Assembly (NCBI GenBank): GCA_965645245.1
Contig: OZ287070.1
Location: 62,001-126,000 of the forward strand
Reading direction: 5' to 3'
DNA: 64,000 bases
From: Massalongia carnosa
Lineage: Eukaryota
A model generated the notes under the pieces. The model was given only the letters and a program-made list of their open reading frames with translations. It made no database searches and was not told the DNA's origin. Within the stretch, counting starts at the first letter, position 1; each line of letters starts with the position of its first letter. The translations under genes were made by a program, and so were the position numbers. Of the stretch, positions 23,881 through 51,882 are shown in pieces.

Positions 23881-26024
23881 ACCAGAAGCCCTTTGTCGTA
23901 AAAAATTCGACCTTAACCCAAAAAAAAAAAAAAAAAAAGTATCACCCACAGCTGAGCCTGTGGGGGTGTTTTCGTACATCGCCAGCAGCATTAGCCTGCG
24001 GAGTACACTGACTCACCTGCAGGTGATCCACTGGGAAGCATGATATTATACTGGAGTATGTGGGAGTTATTGAATTTCTCTTTATCATGTGGGAGTGCTA
24101 TTTCAGTGCCTGAGTGGGGGTGTTAGAATGTACAAATCAGGTTACTTCATTTCAGCCGCACTCACCTTCTACCGCACGAGTATGGCGCACGCTAATGGCT
24201 AGACGTATCGCTAGTCTAATACTAGCATACCGTACATTGTCTATAAATCTAGCTATTCCCACTATATAGAACAACAGCAAGCGTTCTATCCTCTATCTAC
24301 TATACTACCTTTTGATAAATATTACATATCTTTCAAAGATGATGCCACTGGAACGTACCATGTTTATCCGCTGAAACTGAAGAGTCAGGCCTTTGAGAAG
24401 GCAAAGGAATATATTGAATGGGCGTCTCAGGAAACTGGCATGCAGATGGGAGCACTCCATACGGATAGGGGAGGTGAATATAACAATGAAACCTTTCAGG
24501 ACTATCTTAAGAAACAACACATCAGATGGAAATGCAGTGCCCCATACACCCCCGAACAAAATGGAAAAGCCGAGCGACTAAATTATACTCTGATGAGTTC
24601 AGTCCGGTCCATCTTATCAGCAATGAAATTACCGAAGGGCCTATGGCCTGAAATCATCAAAGCAGTGTGTTATCTGAAGAACAGAAGTCCTAACACGGAC
24701 GGGGTGACACCATATGAGAAACTAAACAACAAAAAGCCTAACCTCGGTCATCTAAGAGTGTTGGGTGCACGTGCTTGGGTTCATATTCCCAAGGAAAAGC
24801 GAAAGAAGCTAGACGAACGGTCCTGGCAGGGCATCCATGTGGGCTATGAAGGCACCAATCAGTATCGGATATATGACCCCTGCACAGGCAAAGTTCATGT
24901 TACTAGAGACGTAACTATTGATGAAAAGAACCTATTTGATCGGAAAGCTTACAAATCAAACGAGCTTGTTGACGACGAATGGGCACAAACAGACGATGAT
25001 CAGTTCGGAAATCCAGACGATTTTGACGACGAGGGAAATAACAAACCCGAGGACTATTACACCCCTCGGTCAACTAAACCTCACCTACCTACACCCCCCG
25101 ATTCTCCTCCAAACACGGAACATTCACACCAAAATTCAGTGGGAGATTCACAACAAACAAGGCCAGAAGGGGGAAATGTCGAAGAAAATTATGGAGGGGG
25201 AAATTATGATAATCCCTATGATAGTCTGACCCACGACCCCGAGGCCACCAACCACGAGGCCGAGGCCACCGACCCCGAGGCCCCTGAGGCCTCGGAAGGC
25301 CATAATTCTTCCACCTCTGACCATGTTCCATTGAGAAGGTCCAAGCGGGCACCAGTCAAACGAACACAATATCCTGATGAAATTTTTTATGGACCAGGTA
25401 GGCTACCGAAACGAACTAATTTCACTAGCACAAACGTGGCAAAATCCCACATACATATGATGAAGGCACTAACCATGCTTGCAAGCAACATTGATAATGA
25501 AGGGCCAGATGAACCCCTCTCGCTCAAAGAGGCTATGGCTAGGCCTGATTGGCCCAAATGGATGGAGGCCATGAAGACCGAAATTGAATCTCATACCGAA
25601 AATGGCACGTGGGAGTTGACCGAAGCACCAAAAGACCGACGGGTAATCACCGGACGGTGGGTGTTCAAACTGAAAAAGGATCGACATGGAAACATACTAA
25701 AATACAAAGCACGATGGGTGGTTCATGGCTACAAGCAGGAAGAAGGTCTAGACTACATCGACACCTTCGCTGCAGTGGTCAAGCCTATGTCATATATGAG
25801 ATGGTTCTATGTCACGTGAGGCCCCTGAGTCAAAGTAAATTAAGAATCACCCTCTGAATATTCTTTCCTCATTCACTTCTTCTCACTCGGCCTCATCCAT
25901 CTCACTGACTCGTCGTCGACCCCACTTTGTCTCGGTGCCCCTACCTCGCTGTCAGTGCTTGCTGCTTTTCCAATCTCACTGACTCGTCGTCGACCTCACG
26001 TTGTCTCGGTGCCCCTACCTCCCA

Positions 26025-27038
26025 ATGACGAACACCCGTTCCCAAAGCACCTTGATGGACGACATAGTCCCCGACCCCCAGGAGATTTTCGGATTGACGC
26101 AGGCCCAATCCAATCAAATCTTCGCCCTACAAAAGAAGAAAGCCGAGGCGGAAGCGAAGGCGGCCGAGGCTGAGGCTAGAATTGCCGAGTCCAAGGCATT
26201 GGTCGCCGAGAAGGAGGTGGAAAAAATGCAGCTAGAAATCGACTGCATGCGCCGAGAATCTGACGCCCGAATAGCGGCCGTCATTCCTGCTGGCAAGCCG
26301 AGTCGTGTCGTCGGCGATGACGACGAGGACCTAGGTGAGATCCCTCTCGAAGTAAGAAGCATAGCACCCCGTTTCGCGGGCCTACCACAGGACGAGATCA
26401 TCAAGATCTTTTCAAATAAATTCAAAGCCATCAACCTCTCCCGCCTCCGACACATGCACGGCATGCAATACGAGTCATACAAGGATCAAGACCGCATCGG
26501 CATCGAAGACGGCGCCTTGAGGTTGAGAAAGGCATCCGGGACCTACAAAGATTTCGGAAAGACAGTTCATGACGTCTGGACCGAGAGCTTCATCAACTAC
26601 ACCTCGATCTTGGTCAGTCTTTTCGGGAAATCGAGTCAACAGCTTCACGCCACCATGTCGGCATTCCACGGGAAAATCCTCACGCTGGCCAAGGTGTACG
26701 AGTGGCAGGAAGCAGTCCTCCCCCTCGCCATCGAAACCCACACCCACATCATCGCGTCTCAGCCATCCGACGCATCCCAATGGAAAATGCCCGACGAATT
26801 CCAAGCTCGATTCTGCACCCCCCTCACAGTCCTACGCCGTCGCCGCTCACGATCCCCGCCGTCCCGACGACCGACCCCGAGAGGAGACAGGGCCGAGAGG
26901 GCCGAGAAGGCAGCGGGGGAAATCTGCGACAAGTACAACAGCGGCACCTGCACCTGGCCGTCGTGCTACCGACAGCACAAATGCAAATCGTGCGGCGCGG
27001 CTGGGCATGGCCAGAAGACATGCCCAACGAAGAAATAG
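26025..27038 (+). CDS. gag: Gag-like ORF1 of YR element 1
   Basis: ATG at 26025; coiled-coil-like N-terminus; C-terminal C/H cluster CDKYN..C..C..H.C..C..H..C. Confidence 0.85.
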   Translation: MTNTRSQSTLMDDIVPDPQEIFGLTQAQSNQIFALQKKKAEAEAKAAEAEARIAESKALVAEKEVEKMQLEIDCMRRESDARIAAVIPAGKPSRVVGDDDEDLGEIPLEVRSIAPRFAGLPQDEIIKIFSNKFKAINLSRLRHMHGMQYESYKDQDRIGIEDGALRLRKASGTYKDFGKTVHDVWTESFINYTSILVSLFGKSSQQLHATMSAFHGKILTLAKVYEWQEAVLPLAIETHTHIIASQPSDASQWKMPDEFQARFCTPLTVLRRRRSRSPPSRRPTPRGDRAERAEKAAGEICDKYNSGTCTWPSCYRQHKCKSCGAAGHGQKTCPTKK

Positions 27039-28787
27039 GGGGTTGGTGCAGGAGGCAGTAGAATAGCTTCAATAGCTGAATTCATGACGTCCCATCCCTG
27101 CTTACCTGCACCAATCAGACCAAATACAATCCCTTCGTTTCAACTCGTAGACGCATCTCGTCAGCGTTTGAAAGACAGCCCATCTCCCCTCGTACCGTCC
27201 GCATGGGCAACCCTACTTCAAGAGTATCCGGGCCCCCTCCGAGTCCATCTGCCCATGATCCTTCGTTTCGGAGTACAAATCGGATACGAAGGCCCCACAG
27301 ACATCCTTCGGATCGAAAAAAATCTGACATCAGCGAATGAGGACCCGGAAACGATCGAGAATAAGCTTCAAGAGGACCTCAGGAAGGGCCGAGTCAGACG
27401 AATAGCCGCCCCGAGTCAGCCATTTGTGGCCTCCCCCCTCGGCTTGGTCCCGAAACATGACGGAGGATGGCGACGCATTCATCAGCTGTCTCATCCCAAT
27501 CAAACATCAGTCAACGACAACATTCCAGAAGAGGCATCCAAATTACAATACGCCAGACTCGACGACATTATTCAATTGATTCTGTCAGAGGGCAAAGGTG
27601 CTGTCATAGTGAAAAGAGACGTCAAAGACGCCTTTCGAAACGTTCCCGTCGCACCTCATCATCAATGGCTTCTGGGTTTCGGATGGAATGACGAATTCTA
27701 CACCGAGACATGCCTTTCGTTCGGACTGTCGACGGCCCCGTTCATCTTCAATCTTTTTGCGGAAGGCTTTCATTGGATTTTGGAATCCTTTCTACAATGG
27801 AGATTACATCACTATCTAGACGACTTCGTTGCAATTTTCCCATCCGAGACATCGTCAGAACGATTGCACCAAGAAACAAAAGCCTACAACATTCTCACCG
27901 ACATTCTCGGCATCCCGAGAAACGACTCAAAAGACGCCGAGGGAACGACAGCGACAGTCTTCGGACTCGAGGTCGACACCATCAACAGTCTTATTCGTCT
28001 GCCAGCGGACAAGCTGGAAAAAGCGAGAATCATCACTACAAAGGCACTAAACGAGACGACAATCAGCCTCGGCGACATGCAGTCAATAGCGGGCTTCCTA
28101 AGCTTCTGCGCACAGGCAGTCAAATTGGGCCGAGTCTTCTTACGATTATTCTGGAATTTTATAGCCTCATTTCCCTCGGGCAGTCATCGTCGGGTCAAAA
28201 GAAGAATTCTCACATGGGTCAGACAGGATCTCATCTGGTGGAACAAACTTTTAGTGGACTTCAACGGTATTGTCTTCTTCGAGACGTCAACACGAGACAC
28301 GATCAAGGTGCATACGGATGCATGCCTCACAGGTCTCGGAGGCTATTTTCAACAAGACAACGAGCTCGTGAATCAAAAAAAACACATGTAGGGCCCGAGT
28401 CCTAGTCCTCAATCAGGAAGAATCACCGAGTATAAACGTCCGAGAAGTCGAGGCTATCCTTCTAATCCTTCAGAAATGGGCGCCGACATGGCGACATCGA
28501 CAGATCCTTGTCTTTACCGACAGCAACACAGCATACACAGGATTCACGAATCTAACCCTCAAGGGACCGGCCAACGCGCCTCTACGAGAAATACTGTCCA
28601 TAGCTGCAAAGTGGGACATCGTACTACGTTGTCAATGGATCAGTGGCACTTCCAATGGACTAGCAGACGCCCTGTCACGTTTTGATGATGAAAGATTGGC
28701 TAACTTTTGCCCTCATTGGCAGAACCCATACAATTCGATGAACCTCCCTCCGCCTACCTATCCTCCACACCAGGGCCAGCCCTGGTA
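27039..28787 (+). pseudogene. pol: RT/RNase H of YR element 1, frameshifted near the A run at ~28375-28383
   Basis: SPLGLVPK, KRDVKDAFR, LSFGLSTAP, YLDDF, TDACLTG; RNase H continues in another frame (FTDS, NGLADALSR). Confidence 0.9.
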
Positions 28788-32969: not shown

Positions 32970-35279
32970 GGTAAAACGCCTCGTCTGGCACGGACACTCG
33001 GCGGACACGAGAAAAGGGTACGGGACGGCGATCGACTCATACGAGGCATTCTGCGCGACGACGGGACGCACGTCGTGGCCTGCAACAACCGAGTCCCTCG
33101 AGGAATGGCTAGCCGGTCGACTATACGGGGGCGGCACACCCAAGCAGGGAAAGATAAAACCAGAGACGGCAGCGAGCTACCTCGCCGGCCTCAGATCATA
33201 CCATGTAGACCGAGGATATGGCCTCACCCCATTCGAGGGGCCGAGACTTCAATTGATGCTGAAAGGGGGAAAAAGGATCTTTTCTCAGACAAAAAGAAGA
33301 CGCCTACCCATTTCAAAAGAATTACTGACAAAAATCACCAGTATTCCCGCTCATTCGGCCGAAGACCTCAACATCGACGCGACATTCAAAGTTGCATGGG
33401 CAGGGTTCCTCAGACTCGGGAAAATCACCTACACTGTCGCCGATCGTAAGAAGACATCTTTTCAGAGATTGAAACCTACACGAGGTTACATCTCATTCGC
33501 CGAGAACGATCAATACGCGACATTACGTCTCAAAAGAAGCAAAACAGACACAAATCACTCATGAGTTCAGATAGTGCTGGCAGCGACCAATGAGAGCACT
33601 TGCCCCGTGACAGCACTACGGCGTCTTTTCAGAAATGATCCTCAGCCATCTACATCCCCGCTTTTTCGTCTCGGCACCGCATTCACCAGAGCCTCCGTCA
33701 TAGCATCCCTGAAAAAGAGACTGATAGCCGCCGGCATCAACGACTCGGCATACTCGGGACACAGCTTCAGAAAAGGAGCAGCACAACACGCCGCCGACCA
33801 CGGGATGCTGGATGAGAGTATTCAGAGACTCGGAAGATGGTCATCAAACGCGTTTCAGCTATACTTTCAGACGTCCCAGGCCTCACTATTCAATTTGAAC
33901 CTCAGTTTTCAAAAAGGCATCCCTCTGGCAGTCCCACGTGCTGTCGTCGCCGAGACGAATCCTACAAACTCCTACCCCTACTCAATTTGGGCATTCCATT
34001 GGGCGTACAGGTCAACCAGGGCATCGATCCGGAGCGCCGCCGGGCACCTCCATCTAGATCATCGCCGTCGGGCACTGCCGTCGGGCATCATCTATCGGAT
34101 CTTTGAGCGTCAGCAGACGCCTCGGGCCTAGAAGATGAGGTTCTCACCTCAGCACCGACCCCGAGTCACGTGCCTAGGCCTGCCCGGGTTGACCTGTGTC
34201 GTTCCCATGCCCAATCAAATTCAAGCATTCAAATCAATTCATCCAAAAAGCCCCATCCAGAACGGACGGTTATGATGACAAGAATAATGCCAAAGTAAGA
34301 GGCAGTACTCTGTAGTCACGATTCGAACCTCTCGAAGTAACTTTCGGCTCTTCAGCGATTGCGGAGAGTGCTATGTATGTAAGCATAAAGCACAGTAGGT
34401 TTTAAAAGCAGAATGCATTCTATTGATATTGAGCTGTCGCGCACAGAACGTGAAATCTTTGATACAGAATGGGGGAATGCTTATTGCTCATAGAAGAGTG
34501 GTGCTGTGGACATCATTATTCGACAAGTCGACTTCTACGCCAAGCAGCGTTAGAATCAGGTCATGCATACTCGGAGAAGTTGATTCATTAGTACTATTCT
34601 GTGGACTTGATGAAGTGCTGATGACATGAATGTCTTCGTACCCGTTTAACTCGATTAGCATCTTGTGGAAGAATTCTCATTGTGATGGTCTTTCATTCAC
34701 AACAACATGTACTCCGTAGCCTTATGTTTTCTACCGACGAGGACGGGCATGCCTCGAAAATCATTGGCGATGACGTGTCCGGACTACGCCGCCTAGATGC
34801 ATCTAGTGAAACGTGCTGAACCAATCAGTGCTAAGAAAGCAGCAGGCTGCGCCCACTAGTTCGGCTATGCTGAGAGCTAGTGCGTCGTTAATCGAGACAG
34901 CTCCCGCTTTGATTTCGGCACCGCATGGATCTCTCGGACGGCATAGATGTCTCAGCACCATAAGGATGTCTCAGCACGGCATAGAGATCTTAGCACCGCA
35001 TCGATCCTTCGGACGACAGTTAGGTTTCGGATTTGTGTATGCCTTGCTATGGGCCGCGTTGATGGGGCATACTGGGATGGTAGAGTAGGACAAGGAGAAT
35101 AGGAAGAAGATATATAAAGAGGAGGTCCCAGACGGTATCCCTCATCATCTCACATCTCAAGACAATCAAAAAGCATAGCATTTTGATAGCACTGTTTGCA
35201 ACGTTTTCTTTTCACCCAATTCAAATTTATACAACCACTACACTTAAATTTACTCTATTCAAATCCCTCTCCTCCAAAA

Positions 35280-36434
35280 ATGGCCACCCGCATCTCCAAC
35301 AGAATCACCAAGCCTACCTCCCGCACACAAGGCAGCACTCTAGCCCGTACTAGAACTAGAGCTAGGGCAAATCTAGCCAACTCCAACCCAGACGTCGAAG
35401 TACCCGACTCACAAGACAGCACGGCAACCCTTCAAAGCCATCCTCAACCTTCTCCTCTTCCATCTTCAGCGTTTAATTCCTCCTCACAAGGGCCTGTTAT
35501 ACCGGAAACCCGTTCTCGCACCCCTGATGACATTATTGAACTTAGATCACAACGCGAAATGTCCCGCAGGGAAGCCGAGGAAAGAGAAAGAGTAAGTCTT
35601 AGGCGGGATATCGAAACCCAACAAGCACGTGCCCGAGACGTGGTCCCTGGGCCAGTAGCCTCAGCTCAACAGCCTTCCCTATTATTTCCGACATCATTTC
35701 CACCGCATCGACCAAACTCATTGTATACAGAAGGTATGGATCCTCGTTTTGTTTCTCTTATGAACGAATATCCCACTATCAAGCCCATATGGATAAAGCA
35801 AATCTCCGAGAATACGTTTGACCCAATCAACATTACCAAGCTATGTACCGACATCGACGGAGTTCAAACCAACTCTAGATACGTCAAACTCGGAGAAGGT
35901 CTGGAAATCGCCACGAGAGAAGAAGATGGCTCCTTAAAAGATATCAAAGGGATAGTTCATTTGATACGATGTCTCGGGGTATATTGGATGATACTACTAC
36001 ACTTTGCACACCCCGGTCTCCAGATAAACCTGATGAGAGCCTTCATGGCTTATCAGGACCATCTTCTATCATTATACGCCTTCTACACCTGGGACTCGGT
36101 TCGCATCTTTCATTTGAATTTCCACAAATCTCGAGCCTTTCGCGGGATTGACAACCCGGATGGATGGAAAGAAATGGACCATTCCTTGGAAAGGCATCTT
36201 GTGCGGAAACCGTCCGCTTACTTTGCAAAACCGGACGATAATTCTACGGCTTTCAAAACCTCAGGCGAAAAGATTATCTGTAAGAAATACAACTATGGCA
36301 AAGACTGTCCCGTATATTGTAGATTCCAACATGTGTGTGAGAAATGTGGAAAGCAACATCGGGCGATGGACTGTACAAATGGAAAAAATCAACCCTCTAA
36401 CCCAAATTCGATGCCTCTCCCATCAAGGCAATGA
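35280..36434 (+). CDS. gag: Gag-like ORF1 of YR element 2
   Basis: ATG at 35280; core similar to 26025-27038; CKKYN..C..C..H.CEKC..H..C zinc cluster. Confidence 0.88.
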   Translation: MATRISNRITKPTSRTQGSTLARTRTRARANLANSNPDVEVPDSQDSTATLQSHPQPSPLPSSAFNSSSQGPVIPETRSRTPDDIIELRSQREMSRREAEERERVSLRRDIETQQARARDVVPGPVASAQQPSLLFPTSFPPHRPNSLYTEGMDPRFVSLMNEYPTIKPIWIKQISENTFDPINITKLCTDIDGVQTNSRYVKLGEGLEIATREEDGSLKDIKGIVHLIRCLGVYWMILLHFAHPGLQINLMRAFMAYQDHLLSLYAFYTWDSVRIFHLNFHKSRAFRGIDNPDGWKEMDHSLERHLVRKPSAYFAKPDDNSTAFKTSGEKIICKKYNYGKDCPVYCRFQHVCEKCGKQHRAMDCTNGKNQPSNPNSMPLPSRQ

Positions 36435-38051
36435 CTAACCGCCCCATTCTTATCCATCGCGGAGTCCTTTCCATACACCTTGACGGACAATCTAACAAAT
36501 ATCCCACCGGGCCCATTGAAGAAAGAAGGCTGGGAGAAACATTTGGCCAATCACCCGGATCGCACTTACACACAAACAATTATCGATATCATCACCTACG
36601 GTGCCAAAGTTGGTTATACAGGACCACATCAACTCATTATTAGCGATAATCTTGCCTCTGCAAATGAGGCACCGGAAGTTCTTACCAATGACCTCGAAGA
36701 ACAAATAGCTAGTAATCGGTTGGAGAAAGTCAACAACATTCCTTCTTGCTTTATATGTTCCCCATTAGGCCTTGTACCAAAGGCTAACGGTGGTTGGCGG
36801 CGAATCCATCATCTATCGTATCCGGAGAGTAGCTCAGTCAACGACCACATACCGGAAGACTGGGGCTCCCTGGAATATACCAGCTTCGACGAAGCCATTA
36901 GGTTGATTGAGCAACGCGGGCCAGGGTGTATTCTTATTAAAAGAGACTTTGCGGACGCTTTTCGCCACATACCAGTAGCAAAAAGCGATTGGTGGTTACT
37001 AGGTTTCAAGTGGCAGGATTCCTTTTGGATGGATAAATACTTACCCTTTGGGCTGAGAACGTCGCCGTTCCTTTTTGATCTGTTCGCGAAGGGTATCAAC
37101 TGGATATTGTACAACTGTGGTTGGAAAGACGCTATTCATTACTTGGATGATTTTTTAATAATAGTCAGCACCGGACCAGATGCTGAAAAGTTTGATCAAG
37201 TTTTCCACAACATTTGTAAAGATCTTGGCATGAAAATCAAGCTCGAAAAGAACAGAACTGGAACGACTTGCGATTTCCTCGGCATTGAAATCGATACCGC
37301 GCTCATGGAAGCACGCTTGCCTTCCGAAAAGTTACTAAAAGCAAAGACCCTAGTATCGGCAGCTTTGAATAAAAAAGCCATACCCAGGAAGGAACTCGAC
37401 TCTCTTCTAGGATTCTTATGCTTTGCAGCCAGAGTGGTAAAACCAGGAAGAGCCTTTCTACGCCGTCTTTTCAATGCTACGGCAAGCGTAACCTCTAAAC
37501 TAATCCATCTTAACAAGGACATGAGGGCTGATCTTCTATGGTGGCATCATTTCCTACCTAAATGGAATGGCATACATCTGCTCAACCGTACTAGACATAC
37601 TATGAGAATATGGACAGATGCGTCCGGCTCATATGGTATGGGCGGCTTTATCCTCAGCGAGGATCAAAATTTGCATAATATACAAGCAGCCCGGCAGGCT
37701 TTTAGCACACGCTTTACTACGCGCCTTAGGGCAAAGCATATCAACGTCAAAGAAATGACAGCAATTCTTCAAGCTATGAAAAAGTGGCTACCTATATGCA
37801 AGGGTAGTCATTTAATCCTCTATTGTGATAGCTACGCTGTCACGAAAGGAGTGAATAAAACCTCTATACGAGGCCAAGCAATGCATGCCCTGCGGGCAAT
37901 TACAATGCTAGCTGCATTACATGATATCCAGATAGAAGCGCGATGGATATCATCCAAAGAAAATTATATTGCTGATCTCTTGTCTAGAGGACTTTTGAAG
38001 AAACTGGCTGACAAAATCCCTCAGTTTCAGGCTCTACCCTCAGCAATATAG
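36435..38051 (+). CDS. pol: RT/RNase H of YR element 2, in frame with gag, no upstream ATG
   Basis: SPLGLVPK, KRDFADAFR, LPFGLRTSP, YLDDF, TDASG, INVKE, CDS, NYIADLLSR; frame open from the gag stop. Confidence 0.95.
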   Translation, partial: LTAPFLSIAESFPYTLTDNLTNIPPGPLKKEGWEKHLANHPDRTYTQTIIDIITYGAKVGYTGPHQLIISDNLASANEAPEVLTNDLEEQIASNRLEKVNNIPSCFICSPLGLVPKANGGWRRIHHLSYPESSSVNDHIPEDWGSLEYTSFDEAIRLIEQRGPGCILIKRDFADAFRHIPVAKSDWWLLGFKWQDSFWMDKYLPFGLRTSPFLFDLFAKGINWILYNCGWKDAIHYLDDFLIIVSTGPDAEKFDQVFHNICKDLGMKIKLEKNRTGTTCDFLGIEIDTALMEARLPSEKLLKAKTLVSAALNKKAIPRKELDSLLGFLCFAARVVKPGRAFLRRLFNATASVTSKLIHLNKDMRADLLWWHHFLPKWNGIHLLNRTRHTMRIWTDASGSYGMGGFILSEDQNLHNIQAARQAFSTRFTTRLRAKHINVKEMTAILQAMKKWLPICKGSHLILYCDSYAVTKGVNKTSIRGQAMHALRAITMLAALHDIQIEARWISSKENYIADLLSRGLLKKLADKIPQFQALPSAI

Positions 38052-39067
38052 GACGCGATCCACCCCCATCTTGGTACAGTGAGGTACCTCTAGACGAAAT
38101 CGCAGCACGATACCTCTGGTGGGGCCTGGCCACTAAGACAAGATCTTTATACACAACGGCAAGAAAGGGATACGTTCTTTACTGTAGGGTAAACCTCAAC
38201 GCGCCACCATTTCCAGCCAACATCCGGACGCTGTCTTCGTGGATCGCAGCGTTGGGTGAACGACGCCTGCAACCAAAAACTATTAAGAGCTACTTGACGG
38301 GCATAAGATCATGCCAGATAGATATGGGCCTCGGTAATCTCGACGTATTTCATCACCCGGTGTTAGATCGCATCCTTACTGGCATAAAGCGAAAGAACGG
38401 TGAAGCCGAGAAACGTGAAAGGTTACCAATTACTAGAGAGATCTTAATCAAATTGCTAAGTCGTCTTGATCAAACGAAAGAGAAAGGCGCAAATTTACAT
38501 GCGGCGTACTGCTTAGCGTTTGCAGGCTTCTTACGAGCCGGAGAATTTACTTACACAACGCAAGATGTACTAGACCCAAGCTTTGATCAATGGCACCTCA
38601 CCAGAAAATCTATTAGGTTCGAAGCAGATCACCTACAGCTCTCTCTACCAGTCTCCAAAACCGATTCCTTTCGCCGAGGCATAACACTGACAATTGCGGC
38701 TACCAACGATGTTGCTTGTGCACTAGCTTCTCTTACAAATTTATATAGGCGATTCCCAAGTTCTCCGGCCGCACCACTCTTTAAAAACGGTCAGTCCTTC
38801 ACTCGAGACTACATTACAACAGCGATGAAATCCACCTTAAGGAACTTGGGCTATATAGGAAATTTCTCTGGCCACTCGTTCAGAAGAGGTGCGGCAACAA
38901 CAGCGCGACGGGCAGGACTCACCGAAGACGAGATTCAGATGCTAGGAAGATGGAAGTCAGACGCATACAAGCTTTACATACAAACCCACCCCACTTACCT
39001 TCTTAACGCCTCAAAACGCCTTCAAACATTACCCACGGAACCTCACAATCCAGTCACTAGGTCCTGA
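38012..39067 (+). CDS. Tyrosine recombinase of YR element 2
   Basis: Open from 38012; FAGFLRAGEF, SKTD, GHSFRRG, LGRWKSDAYKLY catalytic set; first ATG only at 38324. Confidence 0.95.
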   Translation, partial: QNPSVSGSTLSNIGRDPPPSWYSEVPLDEIAARYLWWGLATKTRSLYTTARKGYVLYCRVNLNAPPFPANIRTLSSWIAALGERRLQPKTIKSYLTGIRSCQIDMGLGNLDVFHHPVLDRILTGIKRKNGEAEKRERLPITREILIKLLSRLDQTKEKGANLHAAYCLAFAGFLRAGEFTYTTQDVLDPSFDQWHLTRKSIRFEADHLQLSLPVSKTDSFRRGITLTIAATNDVACALASLTNLYRRFPSSPAAPLFKNGQSFTRDYITTAMKSTLRNLGYIGNFSGHSFRRGAATTARRAGLTEDEIQMLGRWKSDAYKLYIQTHPTYLLNASKRLQTLPTEPHNPVTRS

Positions 39068-39930
39068 ACAACACCGCAAGCGGGTCGTTCCATGTTGGGG
39101 ATTGGGAGTCTGTTCACAGCCCAAGGCCTGCGAGAGGGTCTTACATTAGTAGACAGCAAGGCCCTTATCGAGTCCCCCTCTCGAGGCCGGGGGCTGTGAG
39201 CAATAGCCCAAACATACTTAGTAGCAATATAACGAGATTGACACGAACTAGCTAGTTCGGCTATGCTGAGAGCTAGTGCGTCGTTAATCGAGACAGCTCC
39301 CGCTTTGATTTCGGCACCGCATGGATCTCTCGGACGGCATAGATGTCTCAGCACCATAAGGATGTCTCAGCACGGCATAGAGATCTTAGCACCGCATCGA
39401 TCCTTCGGACGACAGTTAGGTTTCGGATTTGTGTATGCCTTGCTATGGGCCGCGTTGATGGGGCATACTGGGATGGTAGAGTAGGACAAGGAGAATAGGA
39501 AGAAGATATATAAAGAGGAGGTCCCAGACGGTATCCCTCATCATCTCACATCTCAAGACAATCAAAAAGCATAGCATTTTGATAGCACTGTTTGCAACGT
39601 TTTCTTTCCCACCCACCCACTCCAGTTCTTCTGTCGCTTAGATAGAGGGAGTCTGTTCACAGCCCAAGGCCTGCGAGAGGGTCTTACATTAGTAGACAGC
39701 AAGGCCCTTATCGAGTCCCCCTCTCGAGGCCGGGGGCTGTGAGCAATAGCCCAAACATACTTAGTAGCAATATAACGAGATTGACACGAACTAGCCTATC
39801 TTGGAGAGTTTTAACTCTCTCTTGACCATCAGTACACCTCAGTATTGTTTTGGTGAGTCTACTGTTGCCAGCACAAAGCCTTATTGTTGCAATTGTAAAT
39901 CTACGACTATCATTACTACTGCAGGATTCG

Positions 39931-42900
39931 ATGGAAAGCTCTTCGCATGAAAGTAGGTCCTTGTTTAGTCACAAGGCTAGTAAGGCAAAACAGGACTCTA
40001 CAGGAGTTTCAGTGCAAGGATCTTCCACAACACAATCAACGAAGCCTGATTCTGCCTCTATTCTGACGTCGGTGAGCTCTAAATCTGCTCCGGATTCAAC
40101 TGAAGAGGCGAGATCGATCGAAGCATCTTCCTCAACGGGTGCGCAAGCTCAGAATGTACAGAGTGGTCTCTGGTACATTGCGCTGCAGAAACTATCGTCA
40201 GAGGAGAAAGCAGCTATTCAGCAAATATCCTTGAATTTTAATCCTGTTCATGCTGCGTTGCCATGGGCGGGAGTTAGGAATTTTGATCCTGTTCATGCTG
40301 CGTTGCCATGGGCGGGAGTCAGGTTTCTGCTTCAGGTGAGATTGGATCTTCCTTTGACATGATCTTGAAAAGATCTAACTCTGAAAAAGATGGCGTTGGG
40401 AGAAAGCGAGTTGATAGCAGCTTTACTTGTTGGGGAAGACAAGGTAACGCAACTTATCAATCGGTGCACAATATATGAACGCCTTTACCTTTCTTCTGAG
40501 GTATCCGGACCGTCCACACTTGCTATGGAGAACTTGACAACGGCGTTGACAGCCTTGTATCTCGTTGTGTTAAGATTCCTTGCCCGTGCCAAGAAATTCT
40601 ATGATAAAGGATCTGTATCTCGAACTCTGGGGAGTGGGTTTGGTTTGAAAGTTCTCGAATTTGTTGAGAGTTGTAAGGACTTAGAAACCCAAGTAGATAC
40701 GGAGGCAAGAAATTTGGATCGCATTCAAGATCGGGAGGCAACTATGAAGCTAAAGAGCTTATTTGAAGACTTGAGAAGCCCAATCTTGCGCGTCGATGCT
40801 CGAGTGAGTGCTTTGAGCGATGAATATGAAGTGAACAAGCGAAATAAAATACTCTCTTGGATATCCGACATTCCATACAAGGGCATCCACAATGTTGCTC
40901 GCAAAGGATGGACGAAGGGGACTGGAAATTGGCTGCTGGAGCATGACCGATATTTAAAATGGCGTGCGTCTAGCGCATCTACAATATTATGGCTGCACGG
41001 AATACGTAAGTGCATATACAATATCTAGCATTTCTTACTGACTGTGTCCATCAGCTGGCGCTGGCAAAACTAAACTTGTGTCAACAGTCGTCGATGATCT
41101 GACTAAAAGTTTTGCTCAGCAATCGAATGACGAGGCGTTGGCCTACTTTTATTGCGATCGCAATCAGCCTAATCGTCAAGACCCAGCAGTAATCATGAGC
41201 AGCTTCGTGCGGCAATTATCGGGAGTCGAAAGCAGCAACACGATTCAACGTCCGATCGTTCAAAGGTATGAAATAGAGCAAAAAAATGGCTTTTCCTCAG
41301 GAGGGCTCGAGATTGAGGAAAGTTTTAATCTTCTACTTCAGCTGATTGAAATTTATTCTCAAATCACGCTAGTTGTGGACGCTTTGGATGAGTGCAACAA
41401 GGAAACGAGGGCCTCTTTCATGGAAAATTTAGACATCTTGGTCAGCGGCAAGTCTTCTAACTTGGTAAAAATTTTCATCTCGAGCAGGCCAGACCTAGAT
41501 ATCAAACACCGATTTAGTGGTGGACCAAACATGGAAATCAGGGCAACGGATAATGAGAAGGACATAGCAATGTTTATTGACGATAAGATCAAGGATAAAA
41601 AGGAATGGTATTGCAAGATAAGTTCCGAACTTAGAGAGCTCATCTCGGAGACATTGGTGAGCAAAAGCGACGGAATGTAAGTTTCTATAACCGTCGGCCA
41701 CTAGCATTGATTTTCTAAGAGTAGAATAGGTTTCAGTGGGCATCTCTTCAGATTATTCAACTGCATAAACTCCTGCCCCGTAGACGCGAAATTGAAGAGC
41801 GACTAGGCAAACTTCCTAAGGACCTTGATGCGGCATATGACGAACTATATCGCAGAATTAAGGCTCAGGATGGAAGTGCGCCCGAAATTGCCGACCGTGC
41901 ATTTCAATGGATTATGTATTCCGTTGTCCCCTTATCACCAGAAGCATTAATCGCTGGGGTTTGTCAAGATCACAACACGGACGTTGTAGACCCTGTGGAT
42001 GTCGATATCAATTTTCTTCTCGACGCTTGTCAAAACTTAATCGTCGTTGATTCTCAGCTTCATATCTGCCGATTTTCCCACTTATCAGTTCAAGAATATC
42101 TGGAAAAACATTGGGGATACTATGATGCGAATGCTCTAATAGCGAAAGTATGTTTGTCTTTGTTGAATGATCCAGTTCAACAAAAACGGAATACCGAATT
42201 GCAAGACGAAAACAAAGAACTCGACGACATTATTCGCTACGCAAGATTCTGTTGGGCAGATCACGTACAAAACCACGATAAAGAAAGGATTGCTTCTCGT
42301 TTAGCGATAATTTTAAAGCAATTCCTTGGATCCTTCAACGAAAGCAGCTCAGCGTACAAGAGTTGGCTTGAAATAATAGACACGGATATAAATAAGAGAT
42401 ATCTTGACGTGCAGGTGTTTAATACCAGTCTGGTATATAAAGTATTTCATAGTATTAGTCCATCTTCTTTAACTTTACTGGTAATATCAGCGTTTGGATT
42501 CAATAAAATCATATTCGATTGGTGGGAAACGGCTGTTTTCGATGTCGAGACACGTAATAAGAATAATGAATCATTACTGCATATTGCAAGTCGATACGGT
42601 CATCCTTTCATTGTCATGATTTTATTGAGGAAAGGGGCGGATGTCAACGCGCAGAGGGGAATATACGGCAACGCGCTGCAGGCGGCATCGTCGAGAGGTC
42701 ACGAGATGGTGGTGCAGCTGCTGCTGGAGAAGGGGGCGGACATCAACGCGCAGGGCGGAGAGTACGGTAACGCGCTGCAGGCGGCATCGTCGCGAGGTCA
42801 CGAGGCGGTGGTGCACTTGCTGCTGGAGAAGGGGGCGGACGTCAACGCGCAGGGCGGATGGTACGGCAACGCGCTGCAGGCGGCATCGTCGGAAGGTCAC

Positions 42901-43629
42901 GAGGCGGTGGTGCAGCTGCTGCTGGAGAAGGGGGCGGACGTCAACGCGCAGGGCGGATGGTACGGCAACGCGCTGCAGGCGGCATCGTCGAGAGGTCACG
43001 AGGCGGTGGTGCAGCTGCTGCTGGAGAAAGGGGCGGACGTCAACGCGCAGGGCGGACCGTACGGCAACGCGCTGCAGGCGGCATCGTCGAGAGGTCACGA
43101 GGCGGTGGTGCAGCTGCTGCTGGAGAAAGGGGCGGACGTCAACGCGCAAGGCGGACGACTTAACAACGCGCTGCAGGCGGCATCGTGTGGAGGTCACGAG
43201 AAAATCGTGCAGTTGCTGTTGAACAGCAAAGCGGACGTGAACGCGCAAGGCGGATACCTTGGCAACGCGCTGCAGGCGGCATCGTTGAGAGGTTATGAGG
43301 AAATCGTGCAATTGGTGTTGAACAGCGGAGCGAACGTGAACGCGCAAGGCGGACGATTTGACAACGCGCTGCAGGCGGCTTCGTGGAATGGCTACAAGGC
43401 GGTGGTGCAGCTACTGCTCGAGAACGGGGCGGACGTTAACGCGCAAGGCGGAGAAACTGAAAAGCATGAGGTTATATCGATATTTGCCAATGACGAGAGG
43501 CTTCAGCCGTTGTATTCATCCGCTCTGAAAAATACCAGCATTGGTGCCACCCGATTTGAGGATACTTTTCGCCGATTGTTAAAACGTTACGCTAAAGATT
43601 TGGATAATGAGGCACAAGTAGGACTTTAG
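39931..43629 (+). CDS. NLR-like NACHT NTPase with ankyrin repeats; exons 39931-40335, 40390-41005, 41055-41676, 41730-43629
   Basis: PVHAALPWAGVR N-terminal motif; Walker A HGIP/GAGKT across an intron; Walker B VVDALDE; ISSRP; GM/FQW; HLSVQEYL; three GT-AG introns preserve the frame. Confidence 0.9.
42628..43452 (+). repeat. About 8 near-identical 99-bp ankyrin units
   Basis: GADVNAQGGxYGNALQAASxxGHEAVVQLLLEK repeats, visibly GC-richer than the flanks. Confidence 0.95.
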
Positions 43630-45907: not shown

Positions 45908-48900
45908 TATTGGAATTTGCCGAGATACCTGAATATTTGCGACCGAGGTTCTTTTGCCTCCTGCTTACTAATTTCCAGATTAGGCAATCATATGCTATAT
46001 GCGAAAAGCTTCAGATATCGGCACGACTTCGGCAACTACGAGGAGGCAAAAGTATGCAGCAAGAATGCTACATTTCGGAGGCAATTCAGCTGTTCATGAT
46101 CACTGAGTGTCTCGGTGTCTCCGGTCAGCAACGAGGTGTATTTTGCCCAGCTGAAAAGGTTCAAAGGAAGCAGGTTCATGCATTTGATATAGGCCGAGAT
46201 GGAGGCCCTCAAGCAGTATAAAGAGACGATGATTCCTCATGTAATTTAGCTATTCAGTCGTTCAGAATTCAGTTCAGCAGATAGCTAAATTTGGAGTATC
46301 TTCACTGGAAATACGGAGTACCTGCATCACGTTTGCCAAGCACTTCTCTTTGCCTATCCTTGATAGCCCTAGACCCTCTTCTCCTGCATCCCGCTGCCGT
46401 ATGCCTGGTTGATTTTTTGTTCAACAGGTTATGAGCCCGGATAGCACTCTATTCAAATCCAGGAGTATTTATCACTAGATCTTTTATCTTAGGGGATATA
46501 GCCCGTGTGCTTGTTCGAACTCCTAGCTATCCATTTCGGCACTCGAATAGGACGACTCCTTCACCACCAAAATGTCTGCCTCAGAAGACAGCCAAGATAC
46601 CGGAGGTGCCATGAGGGCATCCACCACCCCCGAGGCAAGCAAGGCCTCCTCATCAAAGGACAAGGGCCTAGCGGCTATGACAGCCATTGATGGGGGATAT
46701 AAAAGGGGTGCCGGTGTGAAAGGTGAAGTAAAACTGCCAAAACTTACTAGCGACAACTACAGGCTGTGGTCCCACCTTTTGAAGGTGCACTTAATTGCCA
46801 AAGGGCTCTGGAAAGTAGTCAGTGGAGAGATACTCGAACCACCAGGAAGCATGCCTTTGGATAGAGACTCGTGGATCTTTGATGACGCCACAGCAATCAC
46901 CATCCTCATGGGAGCCATGGATGAAAGGCAGCAGAAGCATGTGCAACTGCAGCAATCTGCCAAAGGGGTATGGGATGCCCAAAAGGAAATTCACGGCAAA
47001 GACTCCAGGACACGCTTGGTCCCCATGCTCCGCCGATTTCATACGTATAAGGCCAAGGCAGAGGAAGGAGTGGATGAGACTGCAGCAGAGCTAGAAGATA
47101 TGAGGGATATCATCGCAAATATCAACCCAGAGGTGAAGCCATCCGATATCATGATGGCCCTAGTCCTAATGGATTCGGTGGATCACGAGCGGTATAATGC
47201 GGTGAAATTGCAATTAAACGACTTGGAAAACCTCACGTTTCGGAAGGTGATTGAAAAATATAAGGAAATCGAGCAGATGGCCAGAGATAACGCGGGGACC
47301 CCCTATGAAATCGCTAATAAGGTCTCCGCCAAGCCCTATAAGTTTAAGGGGAAATGTTACCACTGCAAGAAACCTGGTCACGTGAAAACCAAGTGTTTTG
47401 AATGGCTTGCCAGTGACGAAGGCAAGGCCTACAATGAAGATACCGCCAGCACGGCCCAATCAAAGGGCAAGAAAGCCAAGGACGGAGGTAAGGGAGAGGA
47501 AAAGTTAAGGGATGGCAGACGTGGCAAGGGCCGAGGAGGTCACCTTGCACGCAAAGCATCCGGCACAAGGGACAGCGACAGTGAGGATAGCGACGACGAG
47601 TCAGTGTACGGTCGCATGGCCATTGACCACGTGGACCAGAGCGACCATGAGGATTACACCGACTACGTCAACAATGGGGCGCGCTATCGCACTTCCCAGA
47701 AGTGCTCCTCCCCTAAGAGTTTTGCTAGAGTGGCAAAACTCACTTCCAAAGTAATACCCCCGAATGAGTGGATTATTGACTCAGGGGCCAGTCGCCATAT
47801 GACGGCCAATCGGAAGCTATTCACAAACTTTACACTGCAGGTAAGTTGGGTGACGATAGCTAATGGGGTAAAGATTAAATCACCTGGTAAAGGTGATGTG
47901 GCTGTGGAGCTGGAGGATAAGAAGTTCAAACTCACAGAAGTGTTATACGTACCTGAGCTGGATGCGAATTTGTTGTCAATTTCGGCATTACAAGCTAGAG
48001 GAATGATTGTGAGGTTTGGATTGAGTTGCGTCGAAATTTTGAGGAGAGGTACCTGCCTCGCCACCGGGTTTTTGGTGGGAAAAACGTACCTGCTCCGATC
48101 CGCAGGAAGCGGAGTGGCCCTGATAGCCACTGAGGATCCCGAGGAAGAAATCCCTATTACTTCTGATCCAAATATCAGCGAAAGATCGTCCGGAAATCAG
48201 AATTTGCCAAGAATGCCAGAAAATGCAAAAGACAACAAAAAAGCAATTAGCACTCGGTCCCAATTAGAAAGAGACCGATACCTACTATGGCATGGCCGCA
48301 TGGGGCACGTGGGAGCATACAGACTCACTGTCCTCCATGAAGCCACTAATGGAGTGGGAGCCAAGTTACATGACCATGAGAAGGAATGCAAATGCATCAC
48401 ATGTACTCAGACGAAAATGACTCGAATAATCAACCGAAACCCACCAGAACGGGCTACCCGCCGTCTGGAACGAGTCTATTCAGACTTTTGGGGTCCATAT
48501 CGGGTGCCCAATAACCAGGGGACCAAGTATTTTGTGTCCTTCACCGACGAAGCCACCGGCTACTCGGATGTTTACCTCGGGGCCAGGAGCGAGCTAGAAA
48601 AGCTCTTTCGGATGTTCAAAAATCGTGCCGAGATCGAGACAGGGGAGCGAATCAGGACCTTGCGATGTGATAACGCTTTGGAGTATGAAAAACTGGCTAG
48701 AACGATATTGCCGGAAGGAATAGTGGTGGAGTTTACCACGGCCTATACCCCTGAGCAGAATGGGGTTGCAGAAAGACTCAATAGAACGCTGATGCAGATG
48801 GTATCAGCGATGCAGATGTGGTCTGGGTTGCCTAGGTCATTTTGGGGGGACGCAGTACTGACTGCCAATTATCTGAAGAATCGGCTTCCGTCGAAGCGGT

Positions 48901-51882
48901 TTGATATGAAGACCCCATATGAGATGTGGCACCAGAAGAAGCCAGAGGTAGGCCATATAAGGACCTATGGATGCCTCGTACACGTGCACGTTCCTAGCGA
49001 AACTCGTGCGAAGATGGATAAGGTATCCCATCAGGGAATTCTCGTTGGATTCCGGTCATCAAGACAGTATAAGGTGCATAATCCTGATACGAAAACAGTG
49101 GGAGTACATACCTCAGTGAAGTTTTTCGAGGATTGGCCAGGAGGCCCTTTACTGAACGCACCAGTGGAACCGGGTGAGTGGGAGTTAGATGTTGCAGATT
49201 CGGACTACGAACCGGATGAGGAACAAGGCGTTCCTACGCACAAACTTACCAACCCTGAGACAGCCTTAGAGTTTCAGGGAACATCAAACCTAGAAAATGA
49301 CGACGCAATAGTTCTAGGCGATAATGTTCCCGGAGAAAGTATTGAGGGTGCAGAGAATCCCTCACTGAATGAAGGCGATATTCCCGGAAATCGCGAAACT
49401 CCGGGAAATCAAGAAGAAGGAAACGAGACCTCGGAAACTGAAATCCGAGCGCCAGAATTCGAAGGTCTGCCGACTACTGGGCGAAATTCGCCAGAGCCAG
49501 CACAGAATTCAAAAAGGGGGCAGAAAGCCACGCTCCCACCGAAAAATCAACAGCTTGTTTCCGCAGCATCTTCCCGGTCAAGACGCACGAAAAAGCCGTA
49601 TGACTCCAAGGCATTTGATAAGTCAAAAGCACCAATGGCTATCGTTTATATAGCTCGATTGCCTGAACCGGCTACCTATAAGGAAGCCATGACTGGACCA
49701 AATCGCCGTGAATGGAGGGGGGCAACGGAAGAAGAGCTGGAAGCGCTGCGGTGGAAACGCACGTTTATCATCGTGCCGAGGCCGAAAAACCGTGAGCTAA
49801 TAACTTCGAAATGGGTGTTCAAAATCAAATACACATCCGCCGCAGTTATTGAGCGGTTCAAGGCCAGACTTTGTGCTAGAGGTTTCAGTCAGAAATATGG
49901 CATTGATTACGAAGAGACATTTGCACCCACCTTAAGGTTCGAATCTCTGAGAATGTTAATGGCAATTACTGCGTTACTGAACCTGGAAGCACATCAAATG
50001 GACGTTTCAAATGCCTATTTAGAAGGTGAGTTGGAAGAAGAAATCTACATGGAAATACCAGAGGGAATGGATGTTCCGAACGGAAAAAATAAGGCCCTTC
50101 TACTGCAAAAAGGTCTTTATGGTCTCAAGCAATCCGGCCGAATCTGGAGCAGAAAGTTCAGAAGGTATCTGAGATCCATTGGATTCGAACCAATCTCAGC
50201 CGACAATTGTGTGTTCATAAACCTCCAAGCCGGCGTCATTATCTCAGTATACGTCGATGATCTTCTCATCTTTGCCGCCAAAATATCCCGCATCAATGCA
50301 GTCAAGGCACAGCTAAAACGGGAGTATAAGATGAAGGATTTGGGAGAGGTGGACCATATCCTGGGAATGCGAGTGCGGAGGAACCGAAAATCTAGAAATC
50401 TAACACTAGATCAGTCAGTATACATCAACAACTTCATTTCGAAATATGGGATGGAAAATGCACACCCAGTTTCAACTCCTATTGATGGATATGCAGCACT
50501 GACTGCCGCCACCCCCACGGAACCCAGGACCGACCAACTGGAGTATCAGAAAAGGATAGGAAGTCTAATGTATGCCATGACAAGTACCAGACCTGACATA
50601 GCCTTTGCAATTGGCAAGTTAAGTCAATTCAGTCACGATCCAGGTGTAAAGCATCGAGTTGCGCTGGATAGAGTAATTAGGTATTTGAAAGGCACTGCAA
50701 GCTTAGGCCTAGTCTATGGCCCTAGCCCGAAAGGCAACACCCCCATAGGGTACGCGGATGCGGCTTATGCCGATTCCTCGGAAAATCGAAAATCCACACA
50801 TGGCATGACTTTGCTTCTTGCAAATTCAGCATGCATCTGGACCAGCAAGAAACAACGCACTGTTTCTACCTCAACCACTGAAGCCGAATACGTTTCGCAA
50901 TGCCAGGCTTCAAAACAGCTCGTTTGGGCAGGTCGCTGGCTACAGCAACTTGGGATTAGAGAGAGAGGAGCCATCGAACTTCGGTGTGATAATCAAGGGG
51001 CCATTGCACTCGTCAGAAACCCCGAAAACCACTCACGTACGAAACACATCGATGTGCAATATCACTACATTCGCGAGGTAGTGGAGGATGGACTTATCCA
51101 AATCAGCTATGTTCCCACCAACGAGATGGCAGCTGATATTCTAACAAAGCCTTTGACCAAGGCGGCTTTTGAACGCGGACGTGCTCTACTAGGTATGAAG
51201 GAAACCTAGAGAGTTAGCGATAGTTTATCGCAACCACATCGGCCCACGAGGGCCCATGGCCTACCTGAGCATCGTGTTCAGATGGGCAGAACGCGGAGGA
51301 TTTCTTTTAATTCGTTTTTGGGCATGCGAGGGTATGAAGCCATTCAGATACTCGGAGTGGGAGTATTGGAATTTGCCGAGATACCTGAATATTTGCGACC
51401 GAGGTTCTTTTGCCTCCTGCTTACTAATTTCCAGATTAGGCAATCATATGCTATATGCGAAAAGCTTCAGATATCGGCACGACTTCGGCAACTACGAGGA
51501 GGCAAAAGTATGCAGCAAGAATGCTACATTTCGGAGGCAATTCAGCTGTTCATGATCACTGAGTGTCTCGGTGTCTCCGGTCAGCAACGAGGTGTATTTT
51601 GCCCAGCTGAAAAGGTTCAAAGGAAGCAGGTTCATGCATTTGATATAGGCCGAGATGGAGGCCCTCAAGCAGTATAAAGAGACGATGATTCCTCATGTAA
51701 TTTAGCTATTCAGTCGTTCAGAATTCAGTTCAGCAGATAGCTAAATTTGGAGTATCTTCACTGGAAATACGGAGTACCTGCATCACGTTTGCCAAGCACT
51801 TCTCTTTGCCTATCCTTGATAGCCCTAGACCCTCTTCTCCTGCATCCCGCTGCCGTATGCCTGGTTGATTTTTTGTTCAACA
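45908..51882 (+). mobile_element. Full-length, very young Copia LTR retrotransposon
   Basis: 519-bp LTRs 45908-46426 and 51364-51882 (no difference seen); TSD AGGTT; PBS at 46427; PPT GGAGTGGGAG. Confidence 0.97.
46572..51209 (+). CDS. gag-pol: Copia gag-pol polyprotein, 1545 aa
   Basis: CYHCKKPGH..C, WIIDSGAS, WHGRMGH, PEQNGVAER, MDVSNAY, YVDD, KHIDVQYH. Confidence 0.97.
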   Translation: MSASEDSQDTGGAMRASTTPEASKASSSKDKGLAAMTAIDGGYKRGAGVKGEVKLPKLTSDNYRLWSHLLKVHLIAKGLWKVVSGEILEPPGSMPLDRDSWIFDDATAITILMGAMDERQQKHVQLQQSAKGVWDAQKEIHGKDSRTRLVPMLRRFHTYKAKAEEGVDETAAELEDMRDIIANINPEVKPSDIMMALVLMDSVDHERYNAVKLQLNDLENLTFRKVIEKYKEIEQMARDNAGTPYEIANKVSAKPYKFKGKCYHCKKPGHVKTKCFEWLASDEGKAYNEDTASTAQSKGKKAKDGGKGEEKLRDGRRGKGRGGHLARKASGTRDSDSEDSDDESVYGRMAIDHVDQSDHEDYTDYVNNGARYRTSQKCSSPKSFARVAKLTSKVIPPNEWIIDSGASRHMTANRKLFTNFTLQVSWVTIANGVKIKSPGKGDVAVELEDKKFKLTEVLYVPELDANLLSISALQARGMIVRFGLSCVEILRRGTCLATGFLVGKTYLLRSAGSGVALIATEDPEEEIPITSDPNISERSSGNQNLPRMPENAKDNKKAISTRSQLERDRYLLWHGRMGHVGAYRLTVLHEATNGVGAKLHDHEKECKCITCTQTKMTRIINRNPPERATRRLERVYSDFWGPYRVPNNQGTKYFVSFTDEATGYSDVYLGARSELEKLFRMFKNRAEIETGERIRTLRCDNALEYEKLARTILPEGIVVEFTTAYTPEQNGVAERLNRTLMQMVSAMQMWSGLPRSFWGDAVLTANYLKNRLPSKRFDMKTPYEMWHQKKPEVGHIRTYGCLVHVHVPSETRAKMDKVSHQGILVGFRSSRQYKVHNPDTKTVGVHTSVKFFEDWPGGPLLNAPVEPGEWELDVADSDYEPDEEQGVPTHKLTNPETALEFQGTSNLENDDAIVLGDNVPGESIEGAENPSLNEGDIPGNRETPGNQEEGNETSETEIRAPEFEGLPTTGRNSPEPAQNSKRGQKATLPPKNQQLVSAASSRSRRTKKPYDSKAFDKSKAPMAIVYIARLPEPATYKEAMTGPNRREWRGATEEELEALRWKRTFIIVPRPKNRELITSKWVFKIKYTSAAVIERFKARLCARGFSQKYGIDYEETFAPTLRFESLRMLMAITALLNLEAHQMDVSNAYLEGELEEEIYMEIPEGMDVPNGKNKALLLQKGLYGLKQSGRIWSRKFRRYLRSIGFEPISADNCVFINLQAGVIISVYVDDLLIFAAKISRINAVKAQLKREYKMKDLGEVDHILGMRVRRNRKSRNLTLDQSVYINNFISKYGMENAHPVSTPIDGYAALTAATPTEPRTDQLEYQKRIGSLMYAMTSTRPDIAFAIGKLSQFSHDPGVKHRVALDRVIRYLKGTASLGLVYGPSPKGNTPIGYADAAYADSSENRKSTHGMTLLLANSACIWTSKKQRTVSTSTTEAEYVSQCQASKQLVWAGRWLQQLGIRERGAIELRCDNQGAIALVRNPENHSRTKHIDVQYHYIREVVEDGLIQISYVPTNEMAADILTKPLTKAAFERGRALLGMKET

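Follow-up and report, generated by a model that had tools for sequence, protein, structure and literature searches.

Ngaro retrotransposons, which are placed in the DIRS order, were reportedly described by Goodwin and Poulter in 2004. Stop-codon readthrough is a textbook mechanism, familiar from gammaretroviruses and from the type II motifs of viruses; to our knowledge, it has not been worked out how retrotransposons carrying a tyrosine recombinase (YR) set the ratio of structural protein to enzyme. The present analysis concerns one such element, located at positions 34856-39795 of a 64,000-nucleotide (nt) stretch of Massalongia carnosa DNA (assembly GCA_965645245.1, contig OZ287070.1, positions 62,001 to 126,000, forward strand). 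The whole stretch is called the window below, and all coordinates follow its numbering. In this element, a gag-like open reading frame (ORF) and the pol ORF, which encodes reverse transcriptase (RT) together with RNase H, share one frame and are separated by a single TGA codon in the sequence CAA TGA CTA. Programmed readthrough of this stop, giving a Gag-Pol protein, is the best explanation of the layout and, judging from sequence comparison, a likely one.

According to the definitions in PMC3783388 and PMC3266345, Ngaro elements have the order gag-like protein, RT/RNase H, YR, are flanked by split repeats of the form A1...B1 A2 B2, and encode neither a methyltransferase nor a protease or DDE integrase; in all these respects, the element in the window is the same. 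It also resembles fungal Ngaro elements in having a YR ORF frameshifted relative to the RT-RNase H ORF (PMC3783388). DIRS1-like elements likewise encode a YR and an RT/RNase H related to Ty3/gypsy, but their inverted terminal repeats, internal complementary regions, methyltransferase, and long pol/YR overlaps are absent here (PMC3266345). In the searched literature on Ngaro, DIRS, PAT, and VIPER elements, the ORFs of Ngaro/DIRS-type elements are described as separate or overlapping (PMC3783388 and PMC3266345 among the sources). Neither readthrough nor an in-frame gag/pol stop is mentioned in this literature, including the accessible parts of PMC3783388, PMC8547959, PMC3266345, PMC6681497, and PMC9210276; the original Ngaro description and a 2015 review (Poulter and Butler) lay outside the search and may contain a prior mention.

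Closer parallels to the junction are found in other groups. In murine leukemia virus (MuLV), a gammaretrovirus, gag and pol also occupy one frame with one stop between them, and occasional readthrough sets the Gag:Pol ratio (PMC4178896). MuLV uses UAG-G with a downstream pseudoknot (PMC4615788), whereas the element in the window has UGA-CUA and no detectable structure. The type II motifs UGA-CUA and UGA-CGG of alphaviruses and others, as well as cellular UGA-CUAG genes (PMC4615788), share with it UGA-CUA, the key C at +4, and A at -1 and -2; the mammalian CUAG motif has G after CUA, where the element has A. In addition, Tca2 (pCal), a copia-type element of Candida albicans, has the same in-frame gag-UGA-pol arrangement and expresses pol from a gag-pol RNA; it differs in being a long terminal repeat (LTR) element, in its potential pseudoknot, and in its non-canonical bypass (PMC2194720).

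Gag/pol junction of the element

The junction reads CAA (36429-36431), TGA (36432-36434), CTA (36435-36437), and then ACC. The proposed readthrough site is CAA TGA CTA (36429-36437, plus strand), with A at -1 and -2, UGA, C at +4, and a CUA codon. [quoted passage not shown] Translation of 35190-38051 shows a single internal stop in 954 codons, placed 11 codons past a conserved Cys/His finger pair and 27 codons ahead of the conserved pol core. One stop in 954 codons, its placement, and the same layout in 27 of 81 related loci (described below) make the arrangement more than chance would produce.

The first in-frame ATG of pol is codon 199 (37029), which lies within SFWMDKY, downstream of KRDFADAF; the TTG at 36480 is codon 16 of the pol frame. 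An earlier note on this DNA, made from the sequence alone, had given the CAA TGA CTA end of gag, the frame open to 38051, and the first ATG beyond KRDFADAF, and all three were confirmed. The ATG at 36431-36433, which overlaps the TGA (ATGA), was considered as a restart site and rejected: it opens only a -1-frame ORF of about 70 codons (36401-36643) that was judged unrelated to pol.

No stable RNA structure was found after the TGA in segments of 129 nt (z +1.26), 269 nt (z +0.81), and 90 nt (z +0.39). Since the site has UGA-C and z values of +0.39 to +1.26, it does not belong to the type III class, which requires UAG-G and a pseudoknot.

The stop in other copies and in related loci

Contigs of four public runs, which drop rare variants, were aligned to 34856-39251. 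Position 36432 is spanned in three of the four runs (X1, X2, and X5, from three organisms and three studies, one of them possibly the source of the window itself), and each reads TGA CTA; run X6 has no coverage there. The window differs from the contigs of these three runs only at 35547, 36500, and 38666. The stop is thus clearly part of the family consensus and not a private defect, and the expectation of the earlier note that other copies would keep a stop followed by CTA agrees with all three covering runs, where no variant was seen. At the three differing positions, the window has T where the run contigs have G, G, and C, respectively; the second difference, in the pol linker, changes AAG (Lys) of the other contigs to AAT (Asn). 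The mean word depth of element contigs is about 21,000 in X2, about 130-630 in X1, and about 2-5 in X5 and X6; contig depth is not copy number, and the X2 value only flags possible high abundance of the element in that sample.

The search for homologues of the pol ORF gave 1813 sequences at E <= 1e-10. Related loci were found with an alignment of 26 pol homologues; they comprise 79 metagenome loci and two loci in contigs filed as bacterial metagenome-assembled genomes (MAGs), with pol identity to the window copy of 37-55% across the 81. The two latter loci, L080 and L081, contain a eukaryote-type retrotransposon pol and YR in contigs filed under Bacteroidetes and Kribbellaceae, and are probably eukaryotic contigs binned into bacterial genomes.

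At each locus, the pol frame was followed upstream to the first stop, and the preceding ORF was inspected. In 27 of the 81 loci, an ORF no shorter than 150 codons (the longest has 592) abuts this stop in the same frame as pol. Sixteen loci could not be judged, nine of them running off the contig and seven being open to the contig end within 150 codons. Together with the two Ngaro-like elements of the window, the 27 loci form 22 clusters at 80% identity, of which 14 have TGA, four TAA, and four TAG. The stop is swapped even within one cluster (TGA in L018, L019, and L025; TAA in L030). In the window copy (WIN), L001, and L002, the stop is at the homologous place, past '...NS.P..R[QKR]' and ahead of 'S[LI].SI[AS]E.FPY', and the terminal finger pair is common to the upstream ORFs of relatives. 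In a tree of 59 pol sequences, constructed by a quick method, every clean case falls in one clade of 41 rows.

By definition, the linker that runs from the stop to the conserved pol core has no pol-frame stops; a gag ORF abutting it in frame is not implied by that definition. The linker is 27-207 codons long in 20 representatives, and its 1958 codons contain 36 and 72 stops in the other two frames. It diverges fast, and differences between close pairs are spread about equally over the codon positions, so openness and frame, rather than residues, have been preserved through many insertions and deletions.

Context of the stop codon

Leakiness of stop codons decreases in the order UGA, UAG, UAA, and with the +4 base in the order C, U, G, A; UGA-CGG and UGA-CUA constitute type II, UAG-G with a pseudoknot is type III, and adenines at -1 and -2 are stimulatory (PMC4615788). 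The site in the window fits all type II rules (UGA, C at +4, CUA, A at -1 and -2), and the description of UGA-CUA as a leaky context in the earlier note agrees with the type II motif of that source.

TGA serves as the junction stop in 14 of 20 representatives, compared with three of 15 stops at the ends of pol-frame ORFs (p 0.006; this and the following p values treat related lineages as independent and are overoptimistic). A +4 C is present in 16 of the 20, against a frequency of 0.28 for C as the first base of codons (binomial 2e-6) and against one of 15 pol-frame ORF end stops in the same loci (Fisher 2e-5). The codon after the junction stop is CTN in 14 of 20 cases and CTA in seven of 20, while these make up 7.8% and 1.2% of codons in the same loci. 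Relative to the type II motif, only seven of the 20 have CUA and 14 have CUN. Of the stop plus CTA that the earlier note wanted checked in homologues, the single in-frame stop is retained in 22 clusters, and CTA is present in these seven representatives.

A second Ngaro-like element of the window shows another type of signal. Its gag-like ORF (25983-27038), which carries a CCHC knuckle, and its pol (27039-28391) lie in one frame with TAG GGG between them (stop at 27036); this pol is 41% identical to that of the first element and is truncated at 450 codons, so the copy is partly decayed. A hairpin begins 5 nt past the stop (27036-27125; -34.5 kcal/mol, z -4.20, reached by 0 of 200 shuffles). 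This site resembles the UAG-G plus structure class, the structure here being a hairpin, and is a closer analogue of MuLV than the UGA-CUA site is. Two elements of one genome with both classical kinds of readthrough signal are hard to explain unless the stop is passed.

Expression of pol

According to the proposed mechanism, full-length RNA would be translated from the ORF1 ATG at 35280, and most ribosomes would terminate at the UGA at 36432 to give the Gag-like protein. In a minority, a near-cognate tRNA would read the UGA and translation would go on in frame, producing a Gag-Pol fusion of about 923 residues with RT and RNase H. The signal would be the local CAA-UGA-CUA, that is, the leakiest stop, a +4 C, a CUA as in the type II motif of viruses, and A at -1 and -2, and downstream RNA structure would not be involved. 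The Gag to Gag-Pol ratio would thereby be fixed, as in gammaretroviruses. The earlier note had proposed that Pol is made as Gag-Pol by readthrough, and the in-frame stop conserved in 22 clusters together with the CTN/CTA context argues for it. In line with this, none of the 34 database proteins that match the junction region spans it, and all cover at most 59%, namely the pol half. Actual passage of ribosomes through the stop, its frequency, and the amino acid inserted are matters that we infer.

Several observations weigh against readthrough. The clean layout is absent from 38 of the 81 loci, which have extra stops in the pol-frame gag, a gag in another frame, or no recognizable gag; many of them are decayed copies. 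A sister clade of 18 rows in the pol tree holds gag in other frames (e.g., L051/52, L059, and L028); in L051/52, gag and pol overlap by 55 nt with pol in the -1 frame. The same clade also has in-frame decayed copies with TAG CTA or TAG CTT (L065, L072, and L048). No stimulatory structure was detected at the window stop or at six of the seven other junction stops folded (L009, L026, L001, L021, L050, and L016; z from -1.2 to +1.7), the exception being the second element of the window. The stops at the ends of YR ORFs also have +4 C in seven of 11 cases, which is no different from the junction (p 0.41). As this control set and the pol-frame one point in different directions, the +4 argument has little weight by itself, and the enrichment of CTA and CTN is the firmer signal, with the overoptimism of the p values applying to all these comparisons. 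A capsid fold, moreover, could not be demonstrated in ORF1 by Foldseek or VIA-align. Finally, the Tca2 junction alone gave no readthrough in a Saccharomyces cerevisiae reporter, and a cryptic promoter was found in it (PMC2194720). Tca2 serves as a warning and not as a model: an in-frame gag-UGA-pol need not mean simple context-driven readthrough.

The Tca2 result also speaks for the main rival, independent initiation or a non-canonical bypass, which we regard as unlikely. Here Pol would be translated on its own from an internal promoter, by internal ribosome entry, from a non-AUG start (TTG 36480 or 36516), or by termination and reinitiation, and the stop would be a true terminator. In many relatives of about 50% identity, the called pol protein has a conserved start, 'MP(S/A/T)SL', located a few codons past the stop; in L007, this ATG is 12 codons past a TAA, and in 14 of 23 loci an in-frame ATG precedes the pol core. 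However, the other nine of the 23 loci (the window copy and eight more) have no ATG before the pol core. An independent start would put no constraint on the relative frame of gag and pol, but in 22 clusters the two have stayed in frame across linkers of 27-207 codons, and the enrichment of the rare CTA directly after the stop is unexplained by an initiation model.

Loss of the stop from part of the RNA, either because a short intron is spliced out or through RNA editing, is considerably less probable than an independent start. It is suggested by the word CTAAC, similar to a fungal branch point, directly after the TGA of the window copy, but relatives have CTATCC, CTACAT, CTCCCA, and others in its place. 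Inspection of 36200-36700 revealed no donor-like site flanking the stop at a frame-keeping length. The residues on either side of the stop are conserved as protein, and the DNA contigs show no joint at the site.

The element could also be a dead copy, descended from an ancestor with gag and pol fused in one ORF, and its TGA a nonsense mutation without function, as might be thought in a window full of decayed transposons and in view of the continuous gag-pol ORF of L046. This explanation is excluded. The split repeats of the element are 100% identical and none of its three ORFs is otherwise broken; consensus contigs of three runs carry the TGA, and all three kinds of stop occur at the border across the 22 clusters. 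The candidacy of L046 as a natural fused relative was rejected: L062, a copy 99% identical to it, has TAG there, and a deletion of 124 nt produced the L046 ORF. The segment missing from L046 lacks GT..AG ends. At the border in L062 (2769-2890), TAG CCA precedes a stretch of 12 C, and pol is thereby shifted out of frame by one base. A sense codon at the stop position was not found in any natural relative among the related loci; the earlier note had named such a codon in other copies as evidence against readthrough, and the sole fused ORF is this deletion derivative.

Reading of UGA as an amino acid through a variant genetic code or selenocysteine, for which nothing speaks beyond the open frame, is likewise excluded, as relatives use TAA or TAG at the same border, TGA and TAA alternate within one cluster, and the element's own YR ORF ends in TGA.

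Element structure and encoded proteins

The retrotransposon at 34856-39795, which encodes a tyrosine recombinase, is of the Ngaro type and not of the DIRS1 type, because it has the order gag-like ORF, RT/RNase H, YR, has split direct repeats, and lacks methyltransferase, protease, and integrase domains. Its layout is A1, gag-like ORF, RT/RNase H, YR, B1, A2, B2, and three ORFs fill the 3.9-kb interior. Repeat search and exact extension placed all four repeats on the plus strand: A1 at 34856-35211 (356 nt), B1 at 39104-39252 (149 nt), A2 at 39252-39607, and B2 at 39647-39795, with a 39-nt spacer (39608-39646) between A2 and B2. Identity is 100% both between A1 and A2 and between B1 and B2. The join of A, 39 nt, and B was found in contigs of all four public runs compared. 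That the repeats are identical and all three ORFs intact points to a recent insertion.

Pfam detected no methyltransferase, protease, or DDE integrase; the pol ORF matched RT and RNase H families only, and ORF1 matched nothing. Inverted terminal repeats of the DIRS1 type are absent at the element, and the sole inverted repeat in the window is at 1159-2994. The earlier note had contrasted the element with classical DIRS elements and their overlapping frames. The in-frame layout in this contrast holds, the DIRS label does not, and with a Ngaro-type element, the contrast is only loosely apt.

ORF1 (gag-like, 384 aa; 35280-36431, plus strand) starts at ATG 35280 (MATRISN...). The protein has a basic N-terminus, a helical core, and C-terminal tandem Cys/His fingers (CKKYNYGKDCPVYCRFQH and VCEKCGKQHRAMDC). 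In an alignment with the upstream ORFs of 16 relatives, C334, C343, C347, H351, C353, and C356 are invariant, and in tblastn, ORF1 matches the upstream ORFs of relatives where similarity is detectable. No match to the Protein Data Bank was found for its fold with Foldseek at E <= 0.001 (best E 2.8). The AlphaFold model has a mean predicted local distance difference test (pLDDT) score of 68.7, and the best hit of a wide VIA-align search (Z 5.1) is a helical segment within the background stated for the tool. Because neither a Pfam family nor a fold match was found for ORF1, the label 'gag' rests on position and zinc fingers.

The pol ORF (538 aa; 36435-38048, plus strand) is in frame with ORF1 and contains RT at about 36891-37292 and RNase H at about 37596-37862. 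The corresponding Pfam matches, RVT_1 (E 2.9e-14, residues 153-286) and RT_RNaseH (E 1.4e-07, residues 388-476), are both above the cut-offs, and a YLDD box is present in the translation.

Recombinase ORF

The YR ORF (351 aa; 38012-39064, plus strand, to 39067 with its stop) shares 40 nt with pol and is read in the -1 frame relative to it. It has an HSFRRG motif and a C-terminal Tyr, its first Met is about 103 residues in, and it ends in TGA. Its Pfam match to Phage_integrase (E 3e-4, 21 bits) is below the cut-off of 27.1. A YR homologue was found by tblastn downstream of pol in 69 loci, in 61 of which it is in the -1 frame relative to pol; among loci with an unbroken pol, this applies to 46 of 50. 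In the related loci, the YR ORF is usually without an ATG before the conserved start. The YR frame opens at a fixed T[AG]A within the pol codons GCT/ACT GAC/AAC, in the C-terminal 'IAD..PQL' motif. A CAG follows 9-27 nt past this opening, and the word pair CTRAY...CAG, similar to a branch point and acceptor, coincides with the place.

Canonical -1 slippery heptamers in the pol/YR overlap were found only in L006 and L009 (CCCAAAT; in L009 also AAATTTA) and in L051 (CCCCCCA and CCCAAAA), and the overlap of the window copy contains none. No splice donor into the YR frame is conserved near the ORF1 ATG in 16 loci.

A wider proposal, made tentatively and in our view rather doubtful, is that a whole lineage of Ngaro-type elements makes all its proteins from one RNA via two successive recodings: readthrough of a stop with interchangeable signals found side by side in one genome (UGA-CUA without structure, or UAG-G with a hairpin), and then a conserved -1 switch into YR. 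Because most members lack a canonical slippery heptamer and the CTRAY...CAG pair sits at that place, the second step would be an unusual frameshift signal or a conserved splice.

Other features of the window

The window is rich in transposons, many of them decayed, and holds three copia-type elements besides the second Ngaro-like element. The copia-type LTR element at 53053-58256 has gag (53579-54310) and protease-integrase (54311-55981) in one frame with AAA TAG GTC between them, followed by a frame change and RT (55954-57840). Since its LTRs are 97-98% alike and the other two copia elements (19744-23880 and 46551-51209) are single fused ORFs, this stop may be simple decay. Just downstream of the Ngaro-type element, an ankyrin-repeat ORF of 634 codons (41725-43629) includes eight tandem units of 99 nt (42531-43520) that are 64-92% identical.

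Implications

For annotation, the two ORFs of such elements should be joined as one readthrough product, and a copy should not be regarded as dead because of the stop. The comparison of relatives also exposes a second step, namely a recombinase ORF in the -1 frame without a start codon. If readthrough is true, these elements would provide a natural series of short UGA-, UAA-, and UAG-CUN contexts in fungus-like genomes, in which leakiness without RNA structure could be studied. The conserved in-frame leaky stop would then add the order of tyrosine-recombinase retrotransposons to the users of the gammaretrovirus strategy.

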